Origin: Heptranchias perlo
Taxonomy: Eukaryota
Assembly (NCBI RefSeq): GCF_035084215.1
Contig: NC_090340.1
Coordinates: 5,332,001-5,396,000, forward strand
Direction: 5' to 3'
DNA length: 64,000 bases
The notes under the pieces: generated by a model
What the model was told of the DNA's origin: nothing
The model's input: the letters and a program-made list of their open reading frames with translations, nothing else
The model's database searches: none
Shown here: in pieces, positions 3,621 through 64,000 of the stretch
How positions within the stretch are numbered: the stretch's first letter is position 1
Layout of the letters: each line of letters starts with the position of its first letter
Position numbers and translations under genes: made by a program

Positions 3621-5348
3621 AAAAGGGGCCGATGTGAGAATTTTGAAATTAGATGACTTGTTGTCAACTGGCGGTGTCGAATGATTGGTTAACTTTTGTT
3701 GTAAGTCATTTGAATAATATTATGTAAAGCGATATGTCTTTCCAATCAATTAAAATCTGTCCAAAAAAATCTGTTTCTCATTTTACAAAATTGACAATCA
3801 AGAACCACAGTTCAAAAATACAACCAATCAAATAGTGCCAACAAATAATTTCAGTCGCCAAGAGAGTGGCTCCATTCCCCAACCATCCCCCAAACCTCAA
3901 TTCAATCGTGCTCCCTGCCTGGACCTGTGACTCGAAGCCCCGATCCTTCGAGGTTCAGGCCTTTCTTTTCGGTCCACACCGTTTTATTCCCTGTCTGCTA
4001 TGTGACCGATTCCTCAGGTTTCCAAGCCAAGGCATCGGTCTCCAGTCGACTTCTGTGCCCAGACCCTAGTTTCAGTTTTCCTGCTACCTCTCAGCTCGAA
4101 TTCCAGTTTCCGCAAAGGATTTTCTATCTTCAACTTTTACTTCTGCTGCAGATAGGCATGTTCCGCCCCTCTCCCACGGAGAAACTGACATAAATGGCAG
4201 CTGATGGGGGGTGGGGCAGATCGGGGCCATACCCGATTAACTTTAAGACCCAGCTCTCTATCGGCCCGTTTACAAAATGGACTGAGCATTGACCAAGTGT
4301 TCAATCTTTTTTCACTATTCGCGGTGAACTGATCTAATCAGAAACACTGAAAAATGGGAAATAAATCTTCTTAGTGATCAAGAAATTGTGATTTACTACT
4401 TCACACACATTACGAATGCCTGGAAATCTTTGGTCAAGATAAGCCTGAATTGCCTTATCCCGTAAAACATGTTTTGGGTTTATTGTCGTCTTAATTGGCA
4501 GCCCATACCTATACTGAAAGCTTGCCTTCGAAAGCCTCAAGGTACATGGGAGATAAATTAGTTCAAATGGTTAGAATATCAGCAGATATTATTTATGGTG
4601 AAATACTTAAATACTAATGACAACAAAATGAAACCTGCGTTCATACATTGAAGGATACTGCTCTATTGAAACAATGCTCATAACTTTGGAAAATAAAATT
4701 AATTGTGGTTTCTTTCTACAGCCTTTGAGGGTGTTTTAGCTGCAGCTAAATTTTAGAATAACAACGTGCAAGAGTAAAAGCATTGGGCTGTGTTTAAAAT
4801 CTTATTAGATTGTATCAAGATGTGATATTGCCGCATTTAAACAATCAGGTTCGGAAAACAATGGACCGCGGTGAAAAAAAAATGCAAAGAAGTCTTCCCA
4901 TTTAGGAACAGGATGATGGACGTATTCTGGACTTTCATTTAACCCCAACACCTGGGGCACGTGCAGGTATTTCCGCTGATGACGATTTGCTCACATAATG
5001 CACTCCGCATTATTAACTAGAGAATTAAAGGTGGTGCGGACCTCAATAACATGCTTATCAAAGTGAACCATCCGCCATGTAACCCATATATCAATTGAAT
5101 ATTTTCGTGTGAAAGTTTAAAAAAAAATAACGGATAGTTTAAGTAGTGAATATGCCCTTCTCCTTTAACAGTGAGATTTTAGTAATGAATCAGGCACTTT
5201 GATCATTAAAAAGGAGGATAAATGGACCAATAGAATTTTCACTTATGCCTCAGATAACTCTCTCTCTCAGACGAGTGTTTATGAAGTGTTAACTGTAACC
5301 ATATTACTGTAATGTTAGTTGGCTATGGATTTCGCGTAGCCTCCTAAA

Positions 5349-6312
5349 TACCGCCCTCCATGTTGAGTACCAGTTGGAGGAAGCACTGAGGGTAGCCAGG
5401 GCACAGAATTTACTCTGGGTGGGGGACTTCAATATCCTTCACCAAGACTGACTGAGCTGGCCGAGTTCTGATGGGCATAGCTGCCAGACTGGGCCTGCGG
5501 CAGGTGGTCAGCGAACCAACTCGAGGGAAACATCTACATGAACTCGTCCTCACCAATCTACCTGTCGCAGATGCATCTGTCCATGACAGTATTGGTAGGA
5601 GTGACCACCGCACAGTCCTCGTGGAGACGAAGTCCCCTCTTCGCACTGTGGACACCATCCAACGTGTTGTGTGGCACTAACACCGTGCTAAATGGAATAG
5701 GTTCAGAACAGATGTAGCAGCTCAAAACTGGGCATCCGTGAGGCATTGTGGGCCATCAGCAGCAGCAGAATTGTATTCCAGCACAATCTGTAACGTCAAG
5801 GCCCGTCATATTCCTCACTCTACCATTACCAACAAACCAGGGGATCAACCCTGGTTCAATGAGGAGTTCAGAAGAGCATGCCAGAAGCAATTTCAGGCGT
5901 ACCAAAAAAATAGGTCCCAAACTGGTGCAGCTACAACTCAGGACTACATGCATGCTAAACAGAAGAAGCAACATGCTATAGACAGAGCTAAGCAATCCCA
6001 CAACCAACGGATCAGATCAAAGCTCTGCAGTCCTGTCACATCCAGTCGTGAAAGGTGGTAGACAATTAAACAACTAATGGGAGGAGGAGGCTCTGTAAAC
6101 ATTCCCATCCGCAATGATGGCGGAGTCCAGCACGTGAGTGCAAAAGACAAGGATGAATTGTTTGTAACCATCTTCAGCAAGAAGTGCCGAGTGGACGATC
6201 CATCTCAGCCCCCTCCCGATATCCCCACCATCACAGAAGCCATTATTCAGGCAATTCGATTCACTCCACATGATATCAAGGAACGACTGGATGCACTGGA
6301 TAGAGCAAAGGC
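5349..6312 (+). mobile_element. Fragment of the second ('family B') LINE, endonuclease to linker region
   Basis: LRQVVSEPTRG...GRSDHRTVLV and PGDQPWFNEE; colinear with 61170-62130 on -. Confidence 0.9.
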
Positions 6313-6934: not shown

Positions 6935-7070
6935 CCGGGAGAACCTTCACCACACGGATGCAGCGGTTCAAGAAGGCGGATCACCACCACCTTCTCAAGG
7001 GCAATTATGGATGGGCAATAAATGCTCGCCTTGCCATCGACGCCCACATCACATGAATGAATAAAACAAA
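6935..7070 (+). mobile_element. Isolated 3' tail of family-B LINE
   Basis: GCAGCGGTTCAAGAAGGCGG...GGGCAATAAATGC...GCCCACATC matches the tails at 34140-34258 and 49660-49770. Confidence 0.9.
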
Positions 7071-15267: not shown

Positions 15268-15384
15268 GAAAGTGCGGCAGCATCAGGACAACAAAAAGGT
15301 TCGTATGACAATTGGCTCCACATCATAGAGTTCAATTAAAGCTCAGATATATTGATGACTATATCGATATTCCCTCTATCTCTT

Positions 15385-15424
<40 letters not shown>

Positions 15425-19939: not shown

Positions 19940-21560
19940 GATAAGGACGCAAGATGAAGGCCATTCCGGCCATCTAGCCCACCCTTCAATAAAAATCATC
20001 AATACCCCCAACATACCATCCAATTACCTTTTGAATATCATTAGAATATTATCCTCAACTAACCTACCAGGTATTAATTTATTTGTATGAAAAACTATTT
20101 CCCAGCATATGTCCTGAATTTGTCTTTAGACAGTTCATCCTGAATTTATTAAGTACCATTCTGCAATGCGGGTTAAGTGTTCAGGTACAACATTTTGCAA
20201 TTTATTTTCGTATGTGCTTCTACGACGTCTCTGCTCATATGCCTCTATTAAGGGAGGCTAGTCTGCAGTAGCCAGTTAGTTATGGTGCTTGGCTAGTAAT
20301 CCAGAGTTTGTGAGTTTAATTCCTATCATGGCAAGTCGGAAAATTCATTTCGTATAATTTGGTGGTTTATGGGCTGGCACGAGATGAAATAACATAAGCG
20401 CTGTTGGATTGTCATAAAAACCCAACTGGTTCATGAATGTGATTCGGGGAAGGGAACTTGCTACCTTACCAGTCCGACCCTACATGTTACTCCAGTCTCT
20501 AAAAGCAAGTAAGCATGGGCGACGAATGCGACCATTCCAGCTTTAAGCACGTCCTGAGAAAAATATTTAAAATCGATACCATTTTTTTAACATTTACTTG
20601 TAACTCAGTTCCACGTGAGACAATTAGTTAAAATTTCTCGTGCCAGTCCCCGTACACGTACAGTGGCTTGTGCTTCCCATGCCCCTGCATGACCAGGACT
20701 GAATACAAGGAGCTCCCTGACGAGAGCAGTATAAAGTTTCCGCATGATAACCTCAGACTTTAACACCAATTATTCGGCAGTGTAGCTCAGCATTGTGTTT
20801 CCTTCGTCAGTTGCTGGTTTGCAATGATTCGACATGGTCAATGTAGAGGCTACCCGCTCCCATATAATTTCCCACCTATTGACAATCTAATTCTGCACTA
20901 TTCATTAATTATGTTACATGTAACGTCTTGCATGTAACGTCTTGCACTTCTCCTAATCCATATTTTCTGCCAAAGTTCTATCCAGCTGCAAATATTATGT
21001 TATTCTTTATTTAATATCTGAATTACTTCCACAAGATGCAATCCCTTTCCCACCTTGAATGTGATTAATATTTTTACCAATATACTTTGAGTTCCTTAAT
21101 CCATTTCACCATTTTAGATAACATAGGCCAGGAGCTGGAGACAATCTTTAGCTCAACACCAACCTCCAGCTAATTTTCACTAGATTCTCTCTCAGCTTCT
21201 TTCAAATTGTACCCAGGAGGCCGACTCTATTAAGCCACTGTAGCATTATTAGTAGAAAGCGTTGTTAACATGGATTTATATGATATTATAGAATTGTTCA
21301 ACCTTTACCTAAAAACAAACAAACTGTTTAATTAAACAGGATCTGCTCTCAAAAGTCCTATTAGTCTTAAGCTAATTAAATAATTTTCAACAGTTTTGCA
21401 ATAGCTTGTTTCAAACGGCGGATTTGATGACTTTAGTTGTTGCCATTGCAAGATGTAATCGGTCTGTGATTACTCATATTACTTTTAGTGCCTGTTTTGA
21501 AAATCTAGTGAGCTCTTCCCTATATTACCGAATCTCTCGTGATGAGTCGAAGTACTTCAC
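19940..21560 (-). mobile_element. Old, highly decayed CR1 LINE pieces flanking a SINE
   Basis: AAGGCCATTCCGGCCCATC 3'-UTR motif at about 19960; RT-like antisense sequence at 20700-21560. Confidence 0.55.
20270..20570 (+). mobile_element. tRNA-headed SINE, an internally deleted derivative of family-B LINE
   Basis: Head CTTGG-CTAGTAA-TCCAG and GAGTTTAATTCC. Body GGATTGTCATAAAAACCCAACTGGTTCA...GGGAAGGGAAC matches the LINE 5' UTR (62660-62750, -). Tail GCATGGGCGACGAATGCG...CACGTCC matches the LINE 3' tail. Confidence 0.8.
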
Positions 21561-24587: not shown

Positions 24588-27500
24588 ATTAAGATAGAAA
24601 GTGAAGTCGTTACATCCGAAACTAGGGTCTTAAATCTAAAGAAAGGAAACTACGAAGATATGAGGAGTGAGTTGGCTATGATAGATTTGGAAGCTTCGTT
24701 AAAAGGCATGACGGCAATGGTTAACATTTAAGGATCGAATGCATGAATCGCAACAATACTACATTCCTTTCTGGGGCAAAAACACAAAAGCAAAAGGGGC
24801 TCAACCATGGCCAACAAAAGAAGTTAAGGATAGTATTAGATCCAAAGAAGAGTCACATAAAGTTGCCAGAAAAAGTAGCAAGCCTGAGGATTGGGAGCAG
24901 CTTAGAATTCAGCAAAAAAGGACCAAGAAATTAAGTGGCCAAAAATACAGTATGAGAGTAAACTTGCAAGGAACATAAACGTGGACTATAAAAACTTCTA
25001 CAAGTATGTAAAAATAAATAGATTAGTGAAGACAAATGTAGGTCCCTTACAGTTAGAAACTGGAGAATTTATAATGCGGAACAAGGAAGTGGCAGAGCAA
25101 TTAAATAAATACTTTGGTTCTGTCTTCACGGAAGAGAACGCAAAACGCTTCCCAAAAATGCTGGAAACCAAGGGACTAGTGAGAAGGAGGAATTTAAGGA
25201 AATTAGTATTCGTAAAAAAATAGTGCTGGAGAAATTAATGGGACTGAAAGCCGATAAATCCACAGGGCCTGATAATCTGCATCCCAGAGGACGAAAATTT
25301 CCAAATGGCCTTGAAGCCACTTTACATCCTCCTTACAATTCACGATCCCACCTAGTTTTGTGTCGTCGGCAAATTTGAAAAATATTATATTTGGTTCCCT
25401 CATCCAAATCATTGATATATTTTGTGAATAGCTGGGGTCCAAGCATTGATCCCTGCGGCACCCCACTTGTCACTGCCTGCCACCTTGAAAAAGACCGCAT
25501 TATTTTACTCCCTGTTTCCTGTCTGTTAACCAATTTTCAACCAATGCCAGTATGTTATCACCAATCCCATGTGCTTTAAGTTTGCACACTAACCTCTTAT
25601 GTGGGACTTTATCAAAGACCTTCTTAAAATCCAAATAAACCATATCCACCTGTTCTCATAGAGTCATAGAGTCATACAGCACGGATAGAGGCCCTTCGGC
25701 CCATCGTGTCCGCGCCGGCCATCAATCCCTCTCCACTCTAATCCCATATTCCAGCATTTGGTCCGTAGCCTTGTATGCTATGGCATTTCAAGTGCTCATC
25801 CAAATGCTTCTTGAATGTTGTGAGGGTTCCTGCCTCCACAACCCTTTCAGGCAGTGAGTTCCAGACTCCAACCACCCTCTGGGTGAAAAAGTTCTTTCTC
25901 AAATCCCCTCTAAACCTCCCGCCTTTTACCTTGAATCTATGTCCCCTTGTTATAGAACCCTCAACGAAGGGAAAAAGCTTCTTAGTATCTATCCTATCTG
26001 TGCCCCTCATAATTTTGTACACTTCAATCATGTCCCCCCTCAGCCTCCTCTGCTCCAAGGAAAACAAACCCAATCTTCCCAGTCTCTCTTCATAGCTGAA
26101 GCGCTCCAGCCCTGGTAACATCCTGGTGAATCTCCTCTGCACCCTCTCCAAAGCGATCACATCCTTCCTGTAGTGTGGCGACCAGAACTGCACACAGTAC
26201 TCCAGCTGTGGCCTAACCAGTGTTTTATACAGCTCCATCATAACCTCCTTGCCCTTATATTCTATGCCTCGGCTAATAAAGGCAAGTATCCCATATGCCT
26301 TCTTTACCACCTTATCTACCTGTTCCGCCGCCTTCAGGGATCTGTGAACTTGCACACCAAGATCCCTCTGACCCTCTGTCTTGCCTAGGGTCCTCCCATT
26401 CATTGTGTATTCCCTTGCCTTGTTAGTCCCTCCAAAGTGCATCACCTCGCACTTTTCCGGGTTAAATTCCATTTGCCACTGTTCTGCCCATCTGACCAAC
26501 CCATCTATATCGTCCTGCAGACTGAGGCTATCCTCCTCGCTATTTACCACCCTACCAATTTTTGTATCATCAGCGAACTTACTGATCATACCTTTTACAT
26601 TCATATCCAAGTCATTAATGTAGACCACAAACAGCAAGGGACCCAGCACCGATCCCTGTGGTACCCCACTGGCCACAGGCTGCCAGTCACAAAAACAACC
26701 TTCGACCATCACCCTCTGCCTTCTGCCACTAAGCCAGTTTTGTATCCAAAGTGCCAAGGCACCCTGGATTCCATGGGCTCGTACCTTCTTGACCAGTCTC
26801 CTGTGGGGGACTTTATCGAAGGCCTTACTGAAATCCATGTCTACCACATCCACTGCGTTACCCTCATCCAAACGCCTAGTCACCCCCTCAAAAAATTCAA
26901 TCAAATTAGTCAGACATGATCTTCTCTTGACAACGCCATGTTTACTATCCCTGATTAATCCTTGCTTCTCCAAGTGGAGACTAATTTTGTCCTTCAGAAT
27001 TTTTTCCAATAATTTTCCTACCACTGATGTTAGGCTCACTGGCCTGTAGTTCCCCGGTTTTTCCCTACTCCCCTTCTTGAATAATGGTACTACATTAGCG
27101 GTTCTCCAGTCCTCTGGCACATCCCCTGTGGCCAGAGAGGTTCTGAATATATGTGTTAGAGCCCCCGCAATCTCCTCCTTTCTCTCTTATCTTTTCAACC
27201 GGTTACATCCTCAAAAACTCCTGTAGGTTTGACAAACATGATTTCCCTTTCATAAATCCATGTTGACTTTGTCTAAACTCATTGATATTTTCTAAGCGCC
27301 CTGTTGTCTCATGCTTTATAATAAACTCTAGCATTTTCCCTACTACTGATATAGTAGGCAAACCGTTCTGTAGTTCCCCATTTTCTCTCTCCCTCCTCGT
27401 TTAAATAGTGTGGTTACATTTGCCACCCTCCAATCTGCAGGAACTGTTCCATAATCAATAGAATTTTGGAAGATGATAAACAATGCATCCATTATTTCCA

Positions 27501-30555: not shown

Positions 30556-31244
30556 TTGTATCCAAATTCAACCCTACTTCTGAGTTCACAATAAACAGAA
30601 AGTACCCTAATGTCTTATTCAAATGTTTCATTTTCTCTCCATTCGCAACAATGACTGTATTGTGTAACGGTTTTACTGAGCTAACAGGGACTATATTATA
30701 TCCAGCTCATATCAAGTTACTTATTTCCTCATTTTAAGATGGGATCCGCGGTTTTACACAAAGGATGGGCTACCGTATGACATCTGATTGCGACATCGGA
30801 AGTGTCTACTCAGGTTACTATTGCAGTAAATGCTTAGATTGTCTTGTTCTGGATTCAAAACAATCACAAGTAGAGTGCTGATTTGGCACGTATATGAGGG
30901 GGTAAGACAGGGAGAAAGTCGAGAGGAGTCTGCAGAGCAAGAACCCTGCGAGTGCTGCATATTTTCCATTTTTAATAGGCAGCGCTAAAGTGGATCAGCA
31001 CACGATGTCGACATAGAGCGACGCCTTGATAGATTGGAAAACACACATTTATGATTGCTTTTTCCTTTTGCAGAAACATCTCAGAATAAATTATGGCTTT
31101 TTGAACGTACATAAATTGTGAGTGAAAAGTTAATTTGGCCGAGCTGAGATTCTGCAGCAACTAGTGATATTACAGCAGAAGAAATGAATATGCACTTACA
31201 CACTCTTCTTTAACATTCAGCTGATCTATAGCATCTGAGTGTTC

Positions 31245-31530
31245 TTTTTATTGGTTCTTGTAATGTGGGTAACTAGGACTAGGCCGTATTCTCTTCCAGT
31301 ACCGGAGGGCATTAAAATCACCCTCATAGTCTAGTCACATGTAGGGCAGGACGGGCAGGGGGTGCAGCCCTTTCCACCCCCATGGATATTAGTAAACTAT
31401 TTGGGATTTTATTGCAATCATGCAGCTTTAAAGGGGTTAATATTTTCTAATTCCGCTCAAGAAATTGAATTCTCTTTCATAACGTGATGTTGCGAGGGCA
31501 CCGATGCTCACATCTGCAGTTTACACCTTA
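31245..31530 (-). mobile_element. Decayed copy of the family-B-derived SINE
   Basis: AGTCACATGTAGG...GGATATTAGTAAAC...GGGATTTTATTGCAATC aligns with 62660-62750. Confidence 0.6.
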
Positions 31531-31759: not shown

Positions 31760-32095
31760 CTCGACAGTATTGAAGGGGTGCTGCACTATTGGCGGTGCCC
31801 TCTTTCCGAAGAGATGTTAAAAAGGTGTCCCAGCTTACCACCTAAGTTCACGTAAAAATCCTGTGACAATATTGGAGGAAGAAAATGGGAGTTCTCCCGT
31901 ATCCTGGTCAAATAACATAATTAAAGTAGCTTATCTGGTCATTTCTCCTATTACTGCTTGTGAGACCTTACTGTGTGAAAATTGGCTGCAGCCTTTTTCT
32001 ATATTACATCAGTGAGTGCGCCTCAAAGACACGTCATTGAATGTGAAGCGCGTTGGGATCGCCCGAGCGAGTGAAAAGGGCGCTTAAATACATGT
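31760..32095 (+). mobile_element. DeuSINE-superfamily element (SacSINE1/AmnSINE1-like)
   Basis: GGCGGTGCCCTCTTTCCGAAGAGATGTTAAA, TTATCTGGTCATT, AAATTGGCTGC and AAGCGCGTTGGGA match the Deu domain and tail as recalled. Confidence 0.8.
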
Positions 32096-32691: not shown

Positions 32692-34258
32692 AGGCACTGG
32701 ATACAGCAAAGGCTATGGGTCCCGACAACATCGCGGCTGTAGTGCTGAAGAATTGTGCTCCAGAATTAACCACGCCTCTAGCAAAACTGTTCCAGTGCAG
32801 CTACAACACTGGCATCTAACCGACAATGTGGAAAATTGCCCAGGTATGTCCTGTCTACAAAAAGGACAAATCCAATCCGGCCAATTGCAGCCTAATCAAT
32901 CTACTCTCAATCATCAGCAAAGTTATGGAAGGTGTCGTCGACAGTGCTATCAAGCGGCACTTATTTACTAATAACATGGTTACCGATGCTCAGTTTGGGT
33001 TCTTCCAGGACCATTCGGCTACAGACCTCATCACAGCCTTGGTCCAAACATGGACAAAAGAGCTGAATTCCAGAGGTGAGGTGAGAGTGACTGCCCTTGG
33101 CATCAAGGCAGCATTTGTCCCAGTGTGGCACCAAGGGGCCCGAGTAAAATTGAAGTCAATGGGAATTAAGGGGAAAACTCTGCAGTAGTTGGATTCATTA
33201 TTAGCACAAAGGAAGATGGTAGTAGTTGCTGGAGGGCAATCATCTCAGCCCCAGGAGATTGCTGCAGGAGTTCCTCAGGGCAGTGTCCGAGGCCCAACCA
33301 TCTTCAGCTGCTTCATCAATGATCTTCCCTCTATCATAAGTTCAGTAATGGGGATGTTTGCTGAAGATTGCACAGTGTTCAGTTCCATTCACAACCCCTC
33401 AGATTGTTGTAGTTGTCCGTGCCCGCTTGCAGCAAGACCTGGACAACATCCAGGCCTGGCCTGATAAATGACAAGTAACATTCGAGCTAGACAAGTGCCA
33501 GGCAACACCATCTCCAACCAGAGAGAGTCTAACCACCTCCCCTTGACATTCAACGGCATTAACATCGCCGAATCCCCCACCATCAACATCCTGGGGGTCA
33601 GTATTTACCAAAACCTTAACTGGATCAGGCACATAAATATTGTGGCTACAAGAGCAGGTCAGAGGCTGGGTATTCTGCGGCGAGTGTCTCACCTCCTGAC
33701 TCCCCAAAGCCTTTCCACCATCTACAAGGCACAAGTCAGGAGTGTGATGAAATACTTTGCACTTGCCTGGATGAGTGCCGCTCCAACAACACTGAAGAAG
33801 CTCGACACGATCCAGGACAAAGCAGCCCGCTTGATTGGCAACCCATCCACCACCCTAAACATTCACTTCCTTCACCACGGGCGCACCGTGGCTGCAGTGT
33901 GCCATCCACAGGATGCACTGCATCAACTCGTCAAGGCTTCTTCGACAGCACCTCCCAAACCCACGACCTCTACCACCGAGAAGGACAAGGGCAGCACGTG
34001 GGAATGACACCACCTGCACGTTCCCCTCCAAGTCTCAAAGCATCCCGACTTGGAAATATATCGCCGTTCCTTTATCGTCGCTGGATCAAAATCCTGGAAA
34101 TCCCTACCTAACAGTACCCTGCGAGAACCTTCACCACACGGACTGCAGCGGTTCAAGAAGGCGGGTCACTACCACCTTCTCAAGGGCAATTCGGGATGTG
34201 CAATAAATGCTGGCCTCGCCAGCGACGCCCACATCCCATGAACGAATATAAAAAAAAA
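32692..34258 (+). mobile_element. 5'-truncated family-B LINE (RT to poly-A)
   Basis: WKIAQVCPVYKK, GVPQGSVRGP, GMFAED; conserved tail and terminal A run. Confidence 0.95.
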
Positions 34259-37364: not shown

Positions 37365-40300
37365 AGCAGAACGTTGGGAGAGCGGGGAACACCGCTGGAG
37401 CGGCCATAACTACTTAAACCGATCGCGGCAGTAAAGGGGAATCAAACTTTGAGAAAACTCACAAAAGTAACGTCACAGTCGACGCAGCGGAAGAGCCCAC
37501 GAAAGGTAAGTCAATTCACTGTATACTCTATAATATTAATTGCAGTTGGTTATCATTGAGAAATAACTATCTTAAAAATGGGTAAGTAAATCAAGAAGTA
37601 ATTAATAATAATTATTAAAATTAATTAATTACTAACACATTTGAAATCAAGCTAAATGCATTTGCCAATTATAATTCAGACCTCGAGCAACCATATCACT
37701 TCTAGAAATAAAATATTGCTCATGAATGAAAAAAAAATAGTATTTAGGATAAAGATTACGGGAAAGTAGCTAAGCAGGTAAAATAAGTTGGGGATGCCAA
37801 GAGTAAAAGGATCAAACATTCTATTAAATAAGAATCTGGTATACACGAATATTAAATAAGGAAATAGAAAATAGGAGCTAACGGGGTACTAAGATAAAAT
37901 ATATAAATCACGTAAGAGGCATATATATATATATATATATGATGCAAGTAGATCCTAAATATAATGGAGGTACAGATGAAACTCGTTATCTGCAATTCCT
38001 GTGCCATGTGAGTTGCACAGAACACTTCAGGTGTCTTGGATGAGCATATGTGCAGGAAGTGCCTCGAGTTGCTCGAGCGCAGAGTTTCTGAGCTTGAAGT
38101 GCAGCTGCAATCACTGCAGAGCATACGGGGTGCTGAGAATTTCCTGGATCGTATGTTCCAGGAGGTGGTCACTCCACATCCACAGAGAGCTCAGTGGGTG
38201 ACCATCTGGCAGGATAGGAAGAGGCAGGCAGTGCAGGAATCCTCCAGGAGTGTGTCACTCACTAATTGGTTTTCAGTATTCAATACTGGTGAGGGTTGCA
38301 ATGCCTCGAATCAATGCATTGTGGACCATGGCACTGTAGGGCAAAGGACTGCACAGGGAGGCACACAAAACTATAGAACTGCAATGTTTATAGCTGACTC
38401 AATAGTCAGCGGGACAGACACGCATTTCTGCAACCGACGATGTGAGTCCTGCATATGGTGTTGCCTCCCTGGTATCAAGGCAAATGACATCACTAAGAGT
38501 GTGCAGACCTTTTTGAGGAGGGAAGCAGAACAGCCAGAAGTCGTGGTCCATGTGGGAATCAATAACATAGGAGGGAAAATGAATTAGATCCTGCAGTTAG
38601 AGTTTCAGGAGCTAGGGAAGAAGTTAAAAAGCAGGACCTCAAAATTAGTAAGCTCTGGATTACTCCCAATGCTACGTACTAGTGAGTAAAGGAATTGTAA
38701 AATAAGAAAAGTTAATGCATGACTGGAAAAATGGTGCATGAGGGAGAGTTGTAGATTCCTGGGGTATTGGCACCAGTTCTGAGGCAGGAGGAATCTGTTC
38801 AATATGGATGGATTGCACCTCAACACAGCTAGGACCAATGTCCTCGCACGGAGGTTAACTAGTGGTGTGGGGAGGGTACTAGGATGAAATATTGGAGAGG
38901 AGAACCAAGGTGCACCGTGTTCTGGGAGAGACAAATAGTACGAGACTAAATAAAAGTTCAGAAATATGAGCGATCGAACAGGGGGCAAATGCCGGGCAGT
39001 CTAATTGTACATTCGTGCACATTGCAAGGTAAATACGGTTGGTGAGATGCAGACGCAATTCGCCACATGGAACTATGATATAATGGCAATAACAGAGGCC
39101 TGGCTCAAAGAAGGGGAGGATTGTGAACTTAATATTCGTGGCTACAATGTATTCAGGAATGATAGGGAAGGAAGGATAGGAGGCTGGTGGCAGTATTGTT
39201 CACATAAACTATTATAACACTAGAAAGAGACGATGTAGTTGAGGGGTCAAGGACAGTATCTGCTTTTTTCGAATAAAGGAAAAATAGAGGAGCTGTTATG
39301 CGACTGGGTTTATACTATGGCCCACCGCAGAGTGGGAAAGAGACAGAGGAGCAAATTTGCAGGCAATTCACAGAACGATGCAAGAACTATAGAGTACAGG
39401 TAATGGGTGAATTCAATTATCCCAATATAGAATGGGATAGTAACGTTGTAAAGAGCAACGATGTGGAGGAATTCCTGAAATGTGTAGAAGTGAACTTTCC
39501 TGTTCAGTATGTTTCCAGCCCAAAGACGAAGGAAGCAGTGTTCGATCTAGTTCTGGAAAATGAAGAGGGGCCAGTGGAGCATATTTCAGTGGGGGATCAT
39601 TTGGGGAACAGTGATGAAAATAACACCAAGTTTAGTGCAGTTATGAAAAAGGACAAGGAACAATGAAGTGTAAAAATACTTAGCTGGAGGAGGGCCAATT
39701 TCAGTGAGTTAAAAAGGATCATGCCAGGGTCGATTGGAATCAAAAACTGTTGGACAAAACAGTGATTGGAAAATAGGTGACCTTCAAGGAGGAGATGGTT
39801 CAGGTACAGATTAGACACATTCCCAGGAGGGGGAAAGTGAAGTCATGCAAATCTAGAGCTCCCTGGATGATTAAAGATATAGAGATTAAAATGAAAAAGA
39901 GAAGGAGGTTTCTGACAAATGCAAGGTTCATAATGGAGTAGCGAACCAAGTTGAATACAGAAAGTACAGAGACGACCTAAAAATGGGAATAAGAGTGGCA
40001 AAGAGAGAGTGGCTAACATAAAAGGGAACCTAAACGCATTTTATAAACACATAAATAATAAAAGGTAGCAAAAGGAAGTGTGGGGCCGAATAGGCACAAA
40101 AAAAGGAAAACTTGTGGAGGCAGAGGGTATGGCTGTGGTACGAACTGTATAATTTGCATTGGTCTTCAGTAGAGAAGAGGGTGTTGCTTATGTATCAGGA
40201 AAGGAGGGATAGTAGCGATATTGCATCGGATAACAATAGATAAAGAGAAGCTACTGAAAAGATTGGCAGTGCTCAAAGTAGCTAAGTCACCTGTTGTGGA

Positions 40301-41810
40301 AGCAATACACCCTCGGTTACTGAGGGAAGTAAGGGTGAAAATTGTGGAGGATCTCGTCACAATCATCCTAACCTAATTAGATATGGGGCCCGTGCAAGAG
40401 GGCTGGTGGATTGCAAATGATACATCTCTGTTCAAAAAATGGGGAGATGGATAAACCCAGTAATTACAGACCAGTCGGCCTAAAGTCTATGGTGGCAAAC
40501 CTTTAGAGACAATAATTGGAGACAAAATTATTTGTCACTTGGAATAGTATGGGCTAATCAATTAAAGTCAGATCGCATTTGTTAAAGGAAATCGTGTTTG
40601 ACTAACGTGATTGAATTATTTGATGAAGTAAAGGAGAGGGTTGATGAAGATAGTACGGTTGATGCGTATATGGACGGTCAAAAGATATTTGATTAAGCAC
40701 CACGTAATAGAATTGTTTGCAGATTTAAATGCCATACGATTAAAGCGACAATGGGAGCGTGGATACAAAATTGGCTAACGGACAGAAAGCATAGGATTCG
40801 TAGTTAACTGTTGTTTTTCAGACTGGAGGGAATTATAAAGTAGCATTTCCCGGCGGTCGGTATTGGGACCACTGCACTTTCTGATGTATATTAATGACTT
40901 GGACTTGGGTATACAGGGTATAAGTTCAAAGGTTGCAGATAATACGAAACTCGGATATGTGGTAAATTATGTGGAGGATAGTAACAAACTTTAGGAGGAC
41001 ATAGACAAACTAGTGAAATGAACCGATACATGAAATTTGACGCAGAGAGGTGTGAAGTGATCCATTTTCGTAGGAAGAATGTGAAGAGGCAAAATAAACT
41101 GAATGGTACAATTTTAACGGGAGTGCAAGAGCAAAGAGACCTAAGGTATTTTTGAAGGTGGCAGGACAAGTTAAGAAGGCTGTTAAAAAAATCATATGGC
41201 ATACTCGGCTTTGTTAATATAGGCATAGAGTTTAAAGCAAGAAAGTTATGCTAAACCATTATAACACACTGCTTAGGTCTCAGCTGGAGTATTGTGTTCA
41301 ATTCTGGCCACCACACTTCAGGAAGGATGTCATGGACTTAGAGAGAGTGAAGAAGAGATTTACGAGAATGGTACCAGGGATGAGGGACCTCAGTTATGTG
41401 GAGAGACTGAAGAATCTGGGGTTGTTCTCCTTACAGCAGAGAAAGTTCAGAGGAGATATGATAGAATTGTTCAAAATCATGAACAGTGTTGATAGAGTCC
41501 ATAAGGAGAAACAGTTTCCAATGGCAGAAGGCTCGATAACCAGAGGACACAGATTTAAGGTTATTGACAGAATAACCAGTGGTGACATGCAGCCAGTTTT
41601 TATGACCTTGAATGCACTGCCTGAAATTGTGGTGGAAGCAGATTCAACAGTAACTTTCAAAAAGGATTTGCATAAACACTTGAACTGAAAAAAAAATCAG
41701 GGCTATGGGGAATGGGTGGGGGAGTGGGTCTAATCGGACAGCATACCAAAGAACCGGCACAGGCACAATGGGCCGAATGGCGTCCTTGTGTGCCGTGTCA
41801 TGTTATGATA
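37365..41810 (+). mobile_element. Near full-length degenerate CR1 LINE
   Basis: ORF1 with CNSC...CRKC zinc finger and SGNH esterase (37963-38880); endonuclease 39005-39666; RT to 41688; 3' UTR GGGCCGAATGG. Confidence 0.95.
37920..37941. repeat. (TA)n microsatellite
   Basis: Read directly from the sequence. Confidence 0.9.
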
Positions 41811-44185: not shown

Positions 44186-44314
44186 AGATTTTACTCTCAG
44201 TGGCCAGTAATTGACCTGACTACAATTTGGTAAAAAGGTGCTTTATTGAAATTCACAAAAGGATCAACACACACAATGTTGGGGCAATAGTTAACAACAC
44301 AGAGCAAGATATTT

Positions 44315-44500
44315 TTATTATTATTATTTGTTCATGGGATGTGGACGTCGCTGGCGAGGCCAGCATTTATTCCCCATCCCAAATTGCCCTTCAGAAGGTG
44401 GTGTTGAGTCGTCTTCTTGAAACTCTGCAGTCTGTGTGGTGAGGGTTCTCCCACATGCTGTTTGGAAGGGTGTTCCAAGAATTTGACACAGCGACGAATA
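44315..44500 (-). mobile_element. 3' tail of family-B LINE
   Basis: Reverse complement of the conserved tail. Confidence 0.9.
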
Positions 44501-45500
44501 TCACCGATTCCGCACTGGGTAGAGTCGTGTCTCTGTAGGAATCTTGAAGAAAGTACGCTTTCCTCCCTTCCTGGGGTATCTTCTTTGATTCACACTGCTT
44601 CTGCCCCGCCAGTGGTGACCCCTTAGACTCCTTGTCCTCAGTCCTGCTCCGCTTGGAGTCACTTCTTTTTCTGGATCGTTCGTCGAAATTACTGTTTGGT
44701 TGGTCTCCAATGCTACCAGTCGTTACTCCTGCCAAGTCTCTACAACCTGATATCAGTGCAAGGTGCTGTTTTTTATGCCTCTTTTGGGGGAGTACCCAGT
44801 GTTAGCTATTGACATGGGCCCTTACCCTATTGTGGTATCCCAAAAAGGCGAGGTGTCCAATGGTCCCTCGTGTTGTTGTTTCTTTAAGGATAAAGGGTCA
44901 GCCTTCCCCACTATCTTCCACCTTTCAGCGGTCTGCATGAACAACAAGTGTCCCACCTCTGGTCTCAACCAACCATCACCTTACAGAGTGGCTTAAGACT
45001 GTATTTGCCTCACCTTATCTACTTTTTTGCCTCCGTTAAGGTTGGGAATCCATCTTTCCCCATGCCTTCTTTGACTTCTTCAGCTTCCAGGCCAGGTGTC
45101 ATGGACCAGCCTGTAAGGCTTCACTGTTTTACGACTACCCAGCATCTGATAAGAGTCCCAGCCCTAACCAAGTCACGGGTGTTTGTTTGTGGCATCTTTT
45201 AGCTAGTTCATTTAAACCTACCAGAAGACAAAATGCTAAGGCTGCCTTTCCTGCCAGTTAATGATTTTGCGAGCTTCCTGCCCTGATATTAGTCCTGCTT
45301 GATTTACACATCCAACACCAGATTATTTAACGACACAAGTTCAGATATATTTAATTTGCGACTTGTTGGTTTTTCCGAATTGTGACGTATTCACTACCAA
45401 ATAAAAGTTTTGTTCATAACTTTTAAAAACTACAAGGGGCATAGAGACCAGTCGGAAACTATCTGAATTCAGAGGTTTTTTTTTAAACTGCGTGAGGTTG

Positions 45501-45548
<48 letters not shown>
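45501..45548. repeat. (TA)n(GA)n microsatellite inside the putative LTR
   Basis: Read directly from the sequence. Confidence 0.95.
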
Positions 45549-48855: not shown

Positions 48856-49770
48856 TCAGGCACATAGGCAGCATTCACTGATGATTGCACAGTTCCATTC
48901 GCAACCACTCATATAAGGAAGCAGTCCGCGCCCGCATGCAGCAAGATCTGGACAACATCCAGCTTGGGATGATAAGTGGCAAGTAACATTCGCGTCAGAC
49001 ATGAGCCAGGCGATGACCATCTCCAAAAAGCGAGAGTCGAAACCACCTCCCTTTGACATTCAACGGCATTACCATCGCCGAATCCCCCACCATCAAAATC
49101 CTGGGGGTCACCATTGACCAGAAACTTAACTGGACCAGCCACATAAATAATGTGGGTACAAGAGCAGGTCAGAGGCTGGGTAAATCTGCAGCGATTGACT
49201 CACCTCCTGACTTCACAAAGGCTTTCCACCTTCTACAAGGCACAAGTCAGGAATGTGTTGGAATACTCTCCACTTGCCTGGATGAGTGCAGCTCCAACTA
49301 TACTCAAGAAACTGGACACCATGCAGGACAATGCAGCCCGCTTGATTGGCGCCCCATCCACCGCCCTAAACATTCACTCCCTTCAACACCAGCGCACCAT
49401 GGCTGCAGGGTGTAACATCCACAGGAGGCACTGCAGCAACTCGCCAAGGCTTCTTCGACAGCACCTCCAAATCCCACGACATTTACCACATAGAAGGACA
49501 AGGGCAGCAGGCACATGAGAACAACACCCCCAACACGTTCTCCTCCAAGTCACACACCATCCTGACTTGGAAATATATCGCCGTTCCTTCATAGTCACTG
49601 TGTCAAAATCCTGGAACTCCCTACCTAACAGCAATGTGGGAGTACCTTCACCACACCGACTGCTGCGGTTCAAGAAGGCGGCTCACCACCACCTTCTCAA
49701 GGGCAATAAGGGATGGGAATAAATGCTGGCCTTGCCAGCGACGCCCACATCCCATGAACGGAAAAAAAAT
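48856..49770 (+). mobile_element. 5'-truncated family-B LINE inserted in retroviral pol
   Basis: Colinear with 33345-34258; ends in an A run. Confidence 0.95.
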
Positions 49771-50409
49771 AACAGTCAAAATAACTTCCCGTGTACTGGA
49801 GGCTTTCCATCAATCCTACAAATGTTACTCTTAGATTACAGAGGCAGGGACAACATGGTGTTAATAGCATAGACAATGTGAGACCAGATAATAATGGCCT
49901 GGTTGGGGTTCTCAATTACGGCGGTCAAGAGGGCCACCACCTCGGCATATTGGTACGTGTGGGGCATTCACTTCTGCTGGATCATTCCACCGGGAATTAA
50001 TACCGCAAAGTCCGTGTATGCTGTACCCTTTTGGTGAAATAACGAACTGAAAATGTCGACGTCTGGCGCGTTTGCTGCCGGTTGTTTAAGAACTTGGTGG
50101 TCCACACAATCTAGAAGGGGTAAGGGACATTAATGCGGATCGCATAGCAGCTGAGGAAGGAGGGTCTTTTGCTTCAGGGTGACGTCAAGAGCCTGCTGCG
50201 TCAACAGCAGTGTTCAGTGGCTCACCGAGCGGATTCAACTAAGGTATCCCCAGGCTTAAGTAGCAGTTTAAGCGGCGTATGGGGAGAGTGCAGTACCGTC
50301 GATTGTAATCCCGTAATGTATGTGAGTGTTTAACCGCCTAAAACATCGCCAACAGATGAATCTCACATGAATCAGTGCCAGGGCCATTAGCATTTGCAGA
50401 CTCTATACA

Positions 50410-59639: not shown

Positions 59640-62600
59640 AGCCATGGAATGTGGGCTTGGCTGACAATGCCAGCATTGGTTGACCATCCCTAATTGCTCT
59701 TGAGAAGGTGGTGGTGAGCCGTCTTCTTGAACCGCTGCAGTCAGTGCGGTGAAGGCACTCCCACAGTGCTGTTCAGTAGGGAGTTCCAGGATTTTGACAC
59801 TGTGACGATGAAGGAACGGCAATATCTTTCCAACTCGGGATGGTGTGTGACGTGGAGGGAAACGTGCGGGTGGTGTTGTTCCCATGTGCCTGCTGCCCTT
59901 GTCCTGCTAGGTGGTAGATTTCGCGGGTTTGGGAGGTGCTGTCGAAGAAGTTTTGGCGAGTTGCTGCAGTGCATCCTGTGGATGGTACACACTGCAGCCT
60001 CTGTGCGCCGACGCTGAAGAGAGTGAATATTTAGGGTGCTGGATAGGGTGCCAATCAAGCGGGCTGCTTTGTCTTGAATGCTGTCGAGCTTCTTGAGTGT
60101 TGTTGGAGCTGCAGTCATCCAGGCAAGTGGAGGGTCTTACATCACATTCCTAACTTGTGCCTTGTAGAAACTGGGAAGGCTTTGGTCAGTCAGGAGTTGA
60201 GTCAATCCCCGCTGAATACCGAGCCTCTGACCTGCTCTTGCAGCCACAGTATTTATGTGGTTGGTTGAGTTAAGTTACTAGTCAATGATGACGCCTAGGA
60301 TGTTGCGGCATTCGGCGATGGTAATGCCGTTGAATGACAAGGGGAGATGGTTAGATTCTCTCTTGTTAGAGATGGTCATTGCCTGGCACTTGTCTGGCGC
60401 GAATTTTACTTGCCACTTATCAGCCCAAGCCTGGATTTTGCCCAAGTCTTGCTGCATGCGGGCATGGACTGCTTCGATATCTGAGGGGTTGCGAATGGAA
60501 CTGAACACTGTGCAATTATCAGCGAACATTTCTATTTCTGACCTTATGATGGATGGAAGGTCATTGATGAAGCAGCTGAGGATGGTTGGGCCATTGACTC
60601 TGCCCTGAGGATCTCCTGCAGCAATGTCCTGGCGGTGAAATGATCGGCCTCCAACAACCACCATCTTTGTGCTAGGTACAACTCCAGCCACTGGAGAGCT
60701 TTCCCTCTGATTCCAATTGACTTCAATTTTACTAGGGCTCCTTGTTGCCGCACTCGGTGAAATGCTGCTTGATGTCAAGGGCAGTCACTCAAACCTCACC
60801 TCTGGAATTCGGCTCTATTTCCATGTTTGGACCAAAGCTTTAATGAGGTCTGGAGTCGAGTGGCCCTGGCGGAACCCAAACTGATCATCGGTGAGTAGGC
60901 TATTGGTGAGTAAGTGCCGCTTGATAGCACTGTCGACGAAAACTTCCATCACTTTACAGATGACTGAAATTAGACTGATTTTATTGCAATTAGCCGGATT
61001 GGATTTGTCCTGCTTTTTGTGGACAGGACATTCCTCGGCAATTTTCCACATTGTCGGGTAGATGCCAGTGTTGTAGCTGTACTGGAACGGTTTGGCTAGA
61101 GGTGCGGCTAATTCTGGAGCACAAGTCTTCAGCACTCCAGCCGAGATGTTGTCGGGGCCCATAGCCTGTTGTAGCCTGTGCACTCAGTCGTTTCTTGATA
61201 TCACGTAGAGTGAATCGAATTGGCTGAAGACTGGCTTCTGTGATGTTGGGAATATCGGGAGGAGACCGAGATAGATCATCTACTCGGCACTTCTGGCTGA
61301 AGATGGTTGCAAACGCTTCAGCCTTGTCTTTTGCACTCACGTGCTGTACTCTGCCATCATTGAGGATGGGTCTCTTCATAAAGCCTCCTCCTCCCGTTAG
61401 TTGTTTAATTGTCCAGCACCATTTATGACTGGATGTGGCAGGACTGCAGAGTTTTGATCTCATCCGTTGGTTGTGGAATCGCTTAGCTCTCTCTATGGCA
61501 TGTTGCTTCCGCTTTTAGCATGCATTTACTCCTATGTTGTAGCTTCATCAGGTTGGCACCTCATTTTTACGTACGCCTGGTGCTGCTCCTGGCATGCTCT
61601 TCTACACTCCTCATTGAACCAAGGTTGATCCCCAGGCTTGTTGGTAATGGTAGAGTGAGGATTATGCCGGGCCATGAGTTTACAGATTGTGCTGGAATAA
61701 AAATCTGCTGCTGATGGTCCAAAGAACCTCATGGATACCCAGTTTTGAGCTGCTAGATCTGTTCTTAATCCATCCCATTTAGCACGGTGGCAGTGCCACA
61801 CAATACATTGGATTGTGTCTTCAGTGTGAAGACGGGCCTTCTTCTCCACAAGGACTGTGTGGTGAGCACTCTTGCCAATACTGTCATGGACAGATGCATC
61901 TGCGAGAGGTAAATTGGTGAGGACGAGGTCAAGTAGGGTTTCCCTCGTGTTGGTTCGCTCACCACCTGCCGCAGGCCCAGTCTGGCAATTATTTCCTTCA
62001 GGGCTCGGCCAGCTCAGTCAGTAATGGCGCTAACGAGCCACTCTTGGTGATGGACATTAAAGTCCCCCAGCCAGAGGACATTCTGTGTCCTTGCTACCCT
62101 CAGTGCTTCCTCCAAGTGGTGCTCATCATAGAGGAGGACTGATTCATCATCTGAGGGAGGGCGGTAGGCCGTTATCAGCAGAATGTTCCTTCGCCCATTT
62201 TTGACCTGATGCCTTGAGATTTCATGGGGTCTGGAGTCAATTTTGTGAAAACCCAGGGCCACTCCCTCCTTACTGTATATCAGTGTACCACCACCTCTGG
62301 TGGTCTGTCCTGCCGGTGGGTCAGCACATACCCAGGGATGGTGATGGAAGAATCTGGGACGTTGGTTGAAATGTATGATTTTGTGAGTATGGCTATGTCA
62401 GGCTGTTGCTTGACTAGTCTGTGGGACAGATCTCCCAATTTTGGTACAGGTCCACAGATGTTTACGAGGAGGACTTTGCAGGGTCGACTGGGCTTGGTTT
62501 GTCTTTGTCGTGTCCGGTGCCTAGCGGTCCCATGCCAGGTGGACCGTCCGGTTTTATTCTTATTATGACTTTTCGTAGAGGGACTGTACAACTGATTGGC

Positions 62601-62920
62601 TTGCTAGGCCATGTCAGAGGGCGACTCAGATTATGAATCAACCACATTGCTGTGGGTCCAGAGTCACATAAATGCCATACCGGTTAAAAACTGCGGGTTT
62701 CCTTCCCTAAAGGACATTAGTGAACCAGATGGGTTTTTATGACAATCCGCTGGTTTCATGGCCACCATTTCTGATAATGATTATTTTGTATTAATTGAAT
62801 ATTATTAATTGAATTTAAATTCCCCAGCTGCCGTGGCGGGATTTGAACTCATGACTCGGGATTATTTAGTCCAGGCCTGCTGGATTACTATTCCAGTAAA
62901 ATAACCACTATGCTACCGTA
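59640..62920 (-). mobile_element. Full-length family-B LINE: tRNA-like head, short UTR, single EN-RT ORF, no ORF1
   Basis: Endonuclease KVLLVNICG, YRPPS, LGDFNVHH; RT WKIAEECPVHKK, FINDLP, MFADN; conserved tail at 59640-59740. Confidence 0.92.
62828..62920 (-). promoter_or_regulatory. tRNA-Thr(AGT)-like Pol III internal promoter at the LINE 5' end
   Basis: A box TAGCATAGTGG (62905-62915); stem-loop CTGGA-ATAGTAA-TCCAG; B box GAGTTCAAATCC (62839-62850). Confidence 0.8.
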
Positions 62921-63439: not shown

Positions 63440-64000
63440 ATGCCGTTGTGGTTATGTTACTGCTTTAGCAATCTAGAGGCTTGGACTAGAAGTCCACAGA
63501 CCTGCATAAATATGAGGGAATAACCTACTTGCCCTCATCCTCACCAATCTAGATGTCAATTATGCATTTGTCCATGGCAGCGTCGGTAGGAGTGACCACG
63601 GCACAGTCTTTATCGAGACCAATTCCTGTCTTCACACTGAGGACACCCTCCTCGTGCTATGTAGCACTACCACCATGCTAAATGGGATATATTAATAACA
63701 GATCTATCCTCTCGAAGCTGGGCATTCGTGAGGCGCTGTGCCTATAATTGTACTCCACCACAATCAGCAAGCTCATAGTCCAACGTATCCCTCATCCCTG
63801 CATCACCACCAAGGCTGACGACCAACACTGGTTCAATGACAATAGTAAATGAGCATGCCAGGCGGAGCACCTGGCATACCTGAAAATGAGGTGCCCGTCT
63901 GGTAAAGCTACAACACAGAACTGCATGCATGCTAAACGTGGAAGCAGCATGCTTTGGATAGAGCGAAGCGATCCCATAACCAACGGATCAGACCAGTGCC
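63440..64000 (+). mobile_element. Older family-B LINE copy: partial tRNA-like head joined to the endonuclease C-terminus
   Basis: GTGGTTATGTTACTG...AGCAATCTAGAGGCTTGGACTA head, then GRSDHGTVFIET. Confidence 0.8.

Follow-up and report, generated by a model that had tools for sequence, protein, structure and literature searches.

A short tRNA-headed element in Heptranchias perlo that shares both ends of a Zenon LINE

The stretch of DNA analysed here (the window: 64,000 nucleotides of Heptranchias perlo contig NC_090340.1, positions 5,332,001 to 5,396,000) is packed with decayed retrotransposons. The features that concern us, in window coordinates, are the following.

20264..20334 (+): tRNA-Thr(AGT)-like head of the short element, of canonical size (71 nt), with a single anticodon arm and decayed promoter boxes
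20335..20399 (+): linker of the short element, diverged and A/T-rich, without significant LINE similarity
20400..20494 (+): body of the short element, homologous to LINE 5'-UTR 62748 to ~62655
20496..20570 (+): tail of the short element, homologous to the LINE from position 59705 onwards (final codons, stop codon, 3'-UTR), with an A-rich end
31240..31436 (-): second short copy, more decayed, with body 31436-31305 (reaching LINE 62617) and tail 31297-31240
59643..62920 (-): full-length decayed Zenon (CR1-group) LINE, with one endonuclease and reverse transcriptase frame and without ORF1
62590..62750 (-): conserved LINE 5'-UTR body, with most 5'-side deletion joins near its downstream end
62830..62920 (-): tRNA-like head of the LINE, with a perfect A box (62915-62905), a perfect B box (62848-62840) and, following the anticodon arm, a second hairpin ~22 nt in size
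63440..63995 (+): third derivative, in which a two-hairpin head (63440-63505) runs straight into an ORF fragment that begins at LINE ~61950, with ~900 nt skipped
32693..34255 (+): 5'-truncated Zenon copy with an intact tail
5353..6305 (+): further Zenon piece
6936..7070 (+): further Zenon piece
48870..49775 (+): further Zenon piece
44306..44501 (-): further Zenon piece

The frame of the full-length LINE is interrupted by stops and shifts, and its pieces match Pfam PF03372, PF14529 and PF00078, with only ~450 nt lying upstream of the endonuclease domain. Among named proteins, those most similar to the reverse transcriptase piece all belong to sharks and rays (Heptranchias, Mobula, Pristiophorus, Heterodontus and Cetorhinus); for the endonuclease piece, neither a protein homolog nor a PDB match was found. 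A-rich ends are present in four of the five LINE tail copies and are decayed in the full-length one. At 62603-62470 (-) the endonuclease frame stays open and begins with basic residues rich in arginine, and this copy has no Met in that frame between the stop near 62603 and the endonuclease domain; the published Zenon consensuses have a conserved ATG near the start of the endonuclease frame, apparently out of frame when read by eye.

A scan of the window for paired A and B boxes returned two pairs, of which the LINE head is the only clear one, the other lying inside a reverse transcriptase frame. The Rfam tRNA model found no match in 62830-62920, and neither head nor body folded into a significant structure (two LINE tails had z = -1.3 and -1.7). 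The second hairpin of this copy (62900-62856, -) looks like a tandem copy of the anticodon arm, and in other sharks the same place is occupied by other letters. Most shark consensuses carry a hairpin there with different letters, and we therefore dropped the idea of a derived duplication; the second hairpin may be ancestral, hence it was not used to judge direction.

To place this LINE, the first 400 nt of ten Zenon consensuses (Supplementary Table 2 of PMC13343379, Genome Biol Evol 2026) were compared by eye. The segment 62920-62520 agrees with the first 400 nt of elasmobranch Zenon, most closely with SquAca_Zenon-1, and a 14-nt motif from the window occurs in six consensus rows, all of them elasmobranch Zenon. 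Judged by this comparison together with its frame and tail structure, the element at 59643-62920 is a member of the elasmobranch Zenon family. Head, body and the same UTR follow one another continuously in all seven elasmobranch consensuses, from five species, whereas head and body are absent from the other three (two hagfish and one coelacanth). The presence of the head in all seven indicates that it is old and family-wide rather than a chance neighbour of the LINE. The refuting outcome named by the sequence-only reading, a lack of homology between the head and body of the short element and the LINE 5' end in consensus alignments, did not arise. The second hairpin is complete in the LINE copy here, in the 63440 copy and in five of the seven consensuses; it is shortened in the ray, part of the first arm is missing from one Squalus consensus, and the head at 20270 has no second hairpin.

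According to the accessible part of PMC13343379, Zenon is defined by missing ORF1 and poly-A tail, and elasmobranch Zenon is absent from repeat repositories. Its main text contains the word "tRNA" nowhere and "SINE" once, and that part of the paper describes neither the head nor ORF-less derivatives. Our literature search found no paper on a tRNA-headed shark Zenon or its short forms, and an earlier description in Repbase, Dfam or a subscription journal is possible. A 20-nt body motif returned no papers in a full-text search and no matches in the supplement of PMC5786205, and a body-motif scan gave none in viral contigs and none in metagenome contigs. Its 76 matches in prokaryote genomes were rejected as chance 18-mers, none extending beyond 40 letters. 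In five distant Zenon-like loci from metagenomes (34-44% identical in amino acids), head, body and tail had no counterpart and a tRNA gene was likewise missing; these loci may stop short of the 5' end of the element and have no bearing on the head.

The short copies were aligned locally to the LINE at 59643-62920 (-), and the scores were compared with those of 500 dinucleotide shuffles. For the element at 20264-20570 (+), the head aligned to the LINE head with a score of 37 and the body to the LINE 5'-UTR with a score of 73, none of the 500 shuffles equalling either, and the tail aligned to five LINE tails with scores of 29-36 (equalled by 0-6 of 500 shuffles) at 62-70% identity. The claim that this element shares head, body and tail with the LINE is therefore upheld. 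The body motif singled out by the sequence-only reading is present and identical to LINE 62748-62697 at 44 of 52 positions; over the whole body the figure is 68 of 98 (~69%) against the full-length copy. By this alignment the body leaves the LINE at ~62655 and the tail is entered at 59705; a local-split alignment ends the body sooner, where the LINE copy has a stretch peculiar to itself. The linker (20340-20405) has no significant similarity to the LINE, with 221 of 500 shuffles equally good. Its 3' end resembles, by eye, an alternative linker of other copies, unlike that of the LINE copy here; in one sequencing run (X15), 15 and 19 contigs with loose ends at 62748/62749 carry a similar one.

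The tRNA character of the head at 20264-20334 is visible at low thresholds. The best match of the Rfam tRNA model within 20230-20600 spans the full model (1-71 of 71) but scores 15.6 bits where the gathering score is 29, and an Rfam scan of the whole window gave no tRNA match. ARAGORN reports no tRNA in the short element at default settings and tRNA-Thr(agt) at 20264-20334 at a relaxed threshold. The B box at 20314 has one mismatch, the promoter boxes being decayed here and perfect in the LINE head. By the definition of SINEBase, as given in the accessible part of PMC3531059, 20264-20570 has the features of a SINE in being ~307 bp long (<700 bp), non-coding, equipped with a small-RNA-derived head (with the tRNA score below gathering) and sharing its tail with a partner LINE. 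It equally has the hallmark of a SIDE or bipartite non-autonomous LINE, both ends being homologous to one LINE with the interior absent. A search for a target-site duplication found none.

The sequence-only reading had also named a decayed antisense copy with the same three parts at 31245-31530. Body and tail of this copy, here delimited as 31240-31436 (-), were confirmed: no shuffle in 500 equalled its alignment to the 5' part of the LINE or to any of four LINE tails. Its head was not recovered, 88 of 500 shuffles being equally good and the best A box having three mismatches. The copy leaves the LINE 5'-UTR at 62617 and enters the tail ~20 nt beyond 59705 (~59685). Its body is identical to that of 20264-20570 at 65 of 94 positions (69%), and the two share linker and body letters that are absent, by eye, from all seven elasmobranch consensuses. 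Because body identity is only 69% and the body-to-tail joins differ, the view of these two copies as one SINE family is unsupported. A further decayed SINE-like stretch, possibly like the Deu-domain SINEs such as SacSINE1, adjoins this copy at 31760-31990 (+).

The third derivative, at 63440-63995 (+), lies 500 bp from the full-length LINE in opposite orientation. Its head is the best non-self head match in a window-wide scan (equalled by none of 1000 shuffles), and the three derivatives of the window show three different joins (~62655>59705, 62617>~59685 and ~62850>61950). Upstream of the ORF fragment at 5353, the stretch 5295-5352 (+) could be a very decayed head remnant, with 14 of 17 letters of a consensus motif; at this level 22 of 100 shuffles did equally well window-wide. 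The sequence-only reading had proposed dating the forms by divergence. Relative to the full-length copy, four other LINE pieces are 81-86% identical and 63440-63995 is 75% identical, and the ~69% of the 20270 body makes that element older than most LINE copies; within its lineage, either the long or the short form may have come first. The low identity, together with the single-arm head and the different linker, indicates that the 20270 element came from an older lineage.

Deletion joins were sought in contigs of four sequencing runs from three organisms (X1 and X15 being one sample), aligned to the LINE at 80% likeness, a filter that copies as old as 20270 would mostly fail. Five of the 15 joints listed (of 4145 in total) link 62587-62696 to 59716-59911, and the 12 filler rows listed (of 601) hold two further joins from 5' part to tail, so that at least seven different 5'-UTR-to-tail joins occur across the contigs of the four runs. 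Another joint, 62322>60572, takes out nothing but ORF sequence (1.75 kb). All joints rest on a single contig in each run, whose short side spans 18-28 letters matched at 80% likeness, a configuration flagged as unreliable among repeats. The sequence-only reading had suggested mapping breakpoints and microhomologies across copies: several joins do fall, by eye, at short shared words (CTCA and TCAA, and ATGG for the 31245 copy). No second copy with the join of 20270 occurs in the window or among the 15 of 4145 contig joints listed.

The element at 20264-20570 is composed of the head, 5'-UTR body and 3' tail of elasmobranch Zenon, and we think it probably arose when an older relative of this headed LINE lost its ORF by internal deletion. 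The many joins, some of which keep pieces of the ORF, favour the LINE-minus-ORF direction for the short forms, and the spread of breakpoints fits recurrent deletion from a headed LINE, a single capture of an ORF into a SINE predicting one fixed join. During such a deletion, reverse transcriptase, or repair in the course of insertion, would jump from the tail to the 5'-UTR end, in many cases at a short word common to both. What results would keep the internal promoter boxes and a tail that the LINE protein is expected to recognise. Recognition of the tail by the LINE protein is established for CR1-group tails. Such a product would be SINE-shaped at once and could be recopied in trans by the Zenon protein, and repeated deletions would yield several short lineages rather than one SINE family. 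The LINE itself is likely to have acquired its head once, before the split of sharks and rays, from a tRNA or from an earlier SINE. The proposal that the whole SINE is the LINE minus its ORF is in this way supported in structure, the parts coming from both LINE ends, and its direction is favoured by the varied joins; the greater age of 20270 and its single-arm head keep the reverse in play.

That reverse course, which we consider unlikely, would have a tRNA-Thr SINE with a Zenon-derived tail come first, with 20270 and 31245 as its relics; a template switch would then have put head and body onto a Zenon ORF, and the headed LINE would later have made the younger deletion forms. It draws on the headless state of Zenon in hagfish, coelacanth and Lepidoptera, from which it follows that the LINE gained its head at some point, possibly from a SINE, and on the head of 20270, which is the more canonical tRNA and more diverged than most LINE copies. 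Zenon-tailed SINEs are moreover described in butterflies and bivalves, in the accessible parts of PMC6685494 and PMC11481361. Against a SINE-first origin, the two old copies have differing joins, the equally old 63440-63995 (75%) already combines head and ORF, the body is unlike the Meta, V and UCON3 domain sequences by eye, and the young joins are heterogeneous. Both routes considered by the sequence-only reading, deletion of the ORF and its capture, may have operated in sequence.

It is quite unlikely, in our estimation, that the short forms are no SINE at all, that is, one-off deleted LINE copies, produced when insertion went wrong or when the genome later lost sequence, with no further amplification. 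All joins in the window differ, as this account expects, and the joints listed have depths of 236-1850, compared with ~1-2 million over the LINE 5' end in run X1. Weak hints to the contrary come from the contigs, in which depth is not copy number and depth comparisons serve only as hints: the join 62588>59716 recurs in two organisms (X1 and X5), two joints of X1 have depths of 444 and 560 against 34-87 for the eight longest single pieces listed from that run, the joins cluster at the end of the body and the start of the tail, and all four runs show more depth in the body bin than two bins further downstream in the UTR (2.33 M against 1.50 M in X1). That 62590-62920 is merely a SINE lying before a truncated LINE, and the tail match at 20496-20570 noise, is barely credible: the tail match is modest (up to 6 of 500 shuffles) and no contig listed bridges the body/UTR border with 31 letters on each side (record 23 has ~20), but the continuity of head, body and UTR in seven of seven consensuses largely refutes nesting, and the tail match recurs in all five tails tested and in the second copy.

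Returning to the preferred reading, in which the short forms derive from a headed LINE by internal deletion, we also asked how far the LINE transcript is compatible with RNA polymerase III, which terminates at runs of at least four T. In five partial Zenon copies (4051 nt; overlapping and thus non-independent), the sense strand contains no TTTT; base shuffles lead one to expect 5.9 (a count this low in 1 of 300), and a codon-preserving null 3.8 (2 of 300). The full-length copy at 59643-62920 has five TTTT runs, all seemingly private: two are missing from overlapping copies, two, one of which belongs to the first pair as well, are interrupted in the majority letters of contigs, and two in the 5' 400 nt are missing from all seven consensuses. 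By eye, TTTT occurs in the first 400 nt of none of the seven headed consensuses and of all three headless ones.

Stricter nulls weaken this pattern. A non-redundant tiling has one TTTT against 3.7 expected (35 of 400 as low), with A, C and G runs at expectation, and the raw full-length copy has three in the null test against 4.8 (106 of 400), C runs being low there too (4 against 8.3). The runs shared across copies number 0 for T, 2 for C, 3 for G and 8 for A, against naive expectations of 4.5, 9.2, 6.5 and 9.7. As controls, the other LINE family of the window with a reverse transcriptase has 29 TTTT against 31 expected, and five distant, T-rich Zenon relatives have 55 against 57. With private runs discounted, ~3.3 kb would hold no TTTT against ~4-5 expected, an estimated p of ~0.01. 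The results are suggestive of a Zenon sense strand seemingly free of inherited TTTT runs (p ~0.01-0.09, weaker under the stricter nulls), and a T-poor sense strand could have other causes.

LINEs are regarded as polymerase II transcripts, as stated in the accessible part of PMC10886601. We put forward, tentatively and as a rather doubtful extension drawn from sequence features, that elasmobranch Zenon might be an autonomous, protein-coding LINE of 3.3 kb transcribed end to end by polymerase III from its tRNA-derived head; SINE and LINE would then be two lengths of one element, and any internal deletion would give a working SINE. If true, this would account for A and B boxes that stay perfect in sharks and rays alike, for a sense strand apparently free of TTTT and for the missing in-frame AUG before the endonuclease domain. 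The RNA would then be uncapped and its translation would start non-canonically, the conserved body being a candidate for recruiting ribosomes, and Zenon would stand as a rare example of polymerase III making a long protein-coding RNA.

In the usual view, a SINE is put together from three sources: its head from a small RNA, its tail from a LINE and its body from an obscure origin. The short form described here would be SINE-shaped because its parent LINE itself carries a tRNA head, and a very abundant vertebrate LINE with a SINE head would offer a one-step route to the birth of a SINE, with the LINE 5'-UTR as a concrete origin for a SINE body. With thousands of copies, the system is one in which the direction of SINE/LINE change is datable. 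Shark repeat annotation will divide this one family between "SINE" and "LINE". Shark gene models under ordinary gene names (P0015, P0017, P0020, P0023, P0024, P0027 and P0033) contain pieces of the Zenon ORF, and these are likely annotation artefacts from intronic copies. The window also contains a second abundant LINE family, at 25738-27186 (-), 39028-41785 (+), 56555-59311 (+) and elsewhere, with 66-77% identity between copies and a 481-aa open reverse transcriptase frame at 25738-27186, and an inverted match between 15371-15405 and 45501-45537 that occurs at two offsets (91% over 35 nt) and is probably a simple repeat.

Among known systems, the LINE resembles the elasmobranch Zenon elements CarCar_, HypSab_, RhiTyp_, ScyCan_ and SquAca_Zenon, as presented in the accessible part of PMC13343379, in its single endonuclease and reverse transcriptase frame, lack of ORF1, A-rich end and length of ~3.3 kb. 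The chondrichthyan elements SacSINE1 (Deu, L2 tail) and the CmiSINEs (CORE, L2 tail) resemble the short element in having a tRNA head, a body and a LINE tail in the same host group, but, as described in the available portion of PMC5499810, only the L2 tail is common with the LINE and their bodies are conserved SINE domains, a description that sets them apart. Another known chondrichthyan SINE, HE1, is a V-SINE according to the part of PMC4824008 available. We rejected assignment to the V-SINEs or the UCON3-domain SINEs, since the body is unlike the domain sequences printed in the accessible parts of PMC7245038 and PMC4824008 by eye, and assignment to the MetaSINEs (66-bp Meta domain after a tRNA head), since by eye alone it is unlike the bivalve Meta-SINE sequences in the portion of the PMC4824008 supplement available.

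ZenoSINE of the Heliconiini (PMC6685494) and the bivalve SINEs of PMC11481361 are likewise short and Zenon-tailed (CR1-Zenon in bivalves), but the accessible parts of both papers report no origin of head or body in the 5' end of Zenon. The bipartite non-autonomous LINEs, and the SINEs with LINE 5'-UTR bodies, known for RTE and Vingi share the combination of a 5'-UTR-derived body with a LINE tail (Kojima 2018, PMC5786205). There, only RTE and Vingi were found to contribute 5'-UTR bodies to SINEs and the head was added later by template switch, whereas the CR1-group LINE here already has its head. Closest is Persaeus, a SIDE of lepidopteran Zenon that, by the accessible account in PMC6740152, arose at least four times, at 5-bp direct repeats. 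Like the short forms here, it consists of the Zenon 5' and 3' ends with the ORF lost, with several independent origins and short repeats at the breakpoints; unlike them, it is stated in the same part of that paper to be without tRNA, 5S or 7SL homology and without a polymerase III promoter, whereas here the head comes with the LINE 5' end. The element at 20264-20570 is a real feature and probably adds a tRNA-headed form to the ORF-less Zenon derivatives already known.
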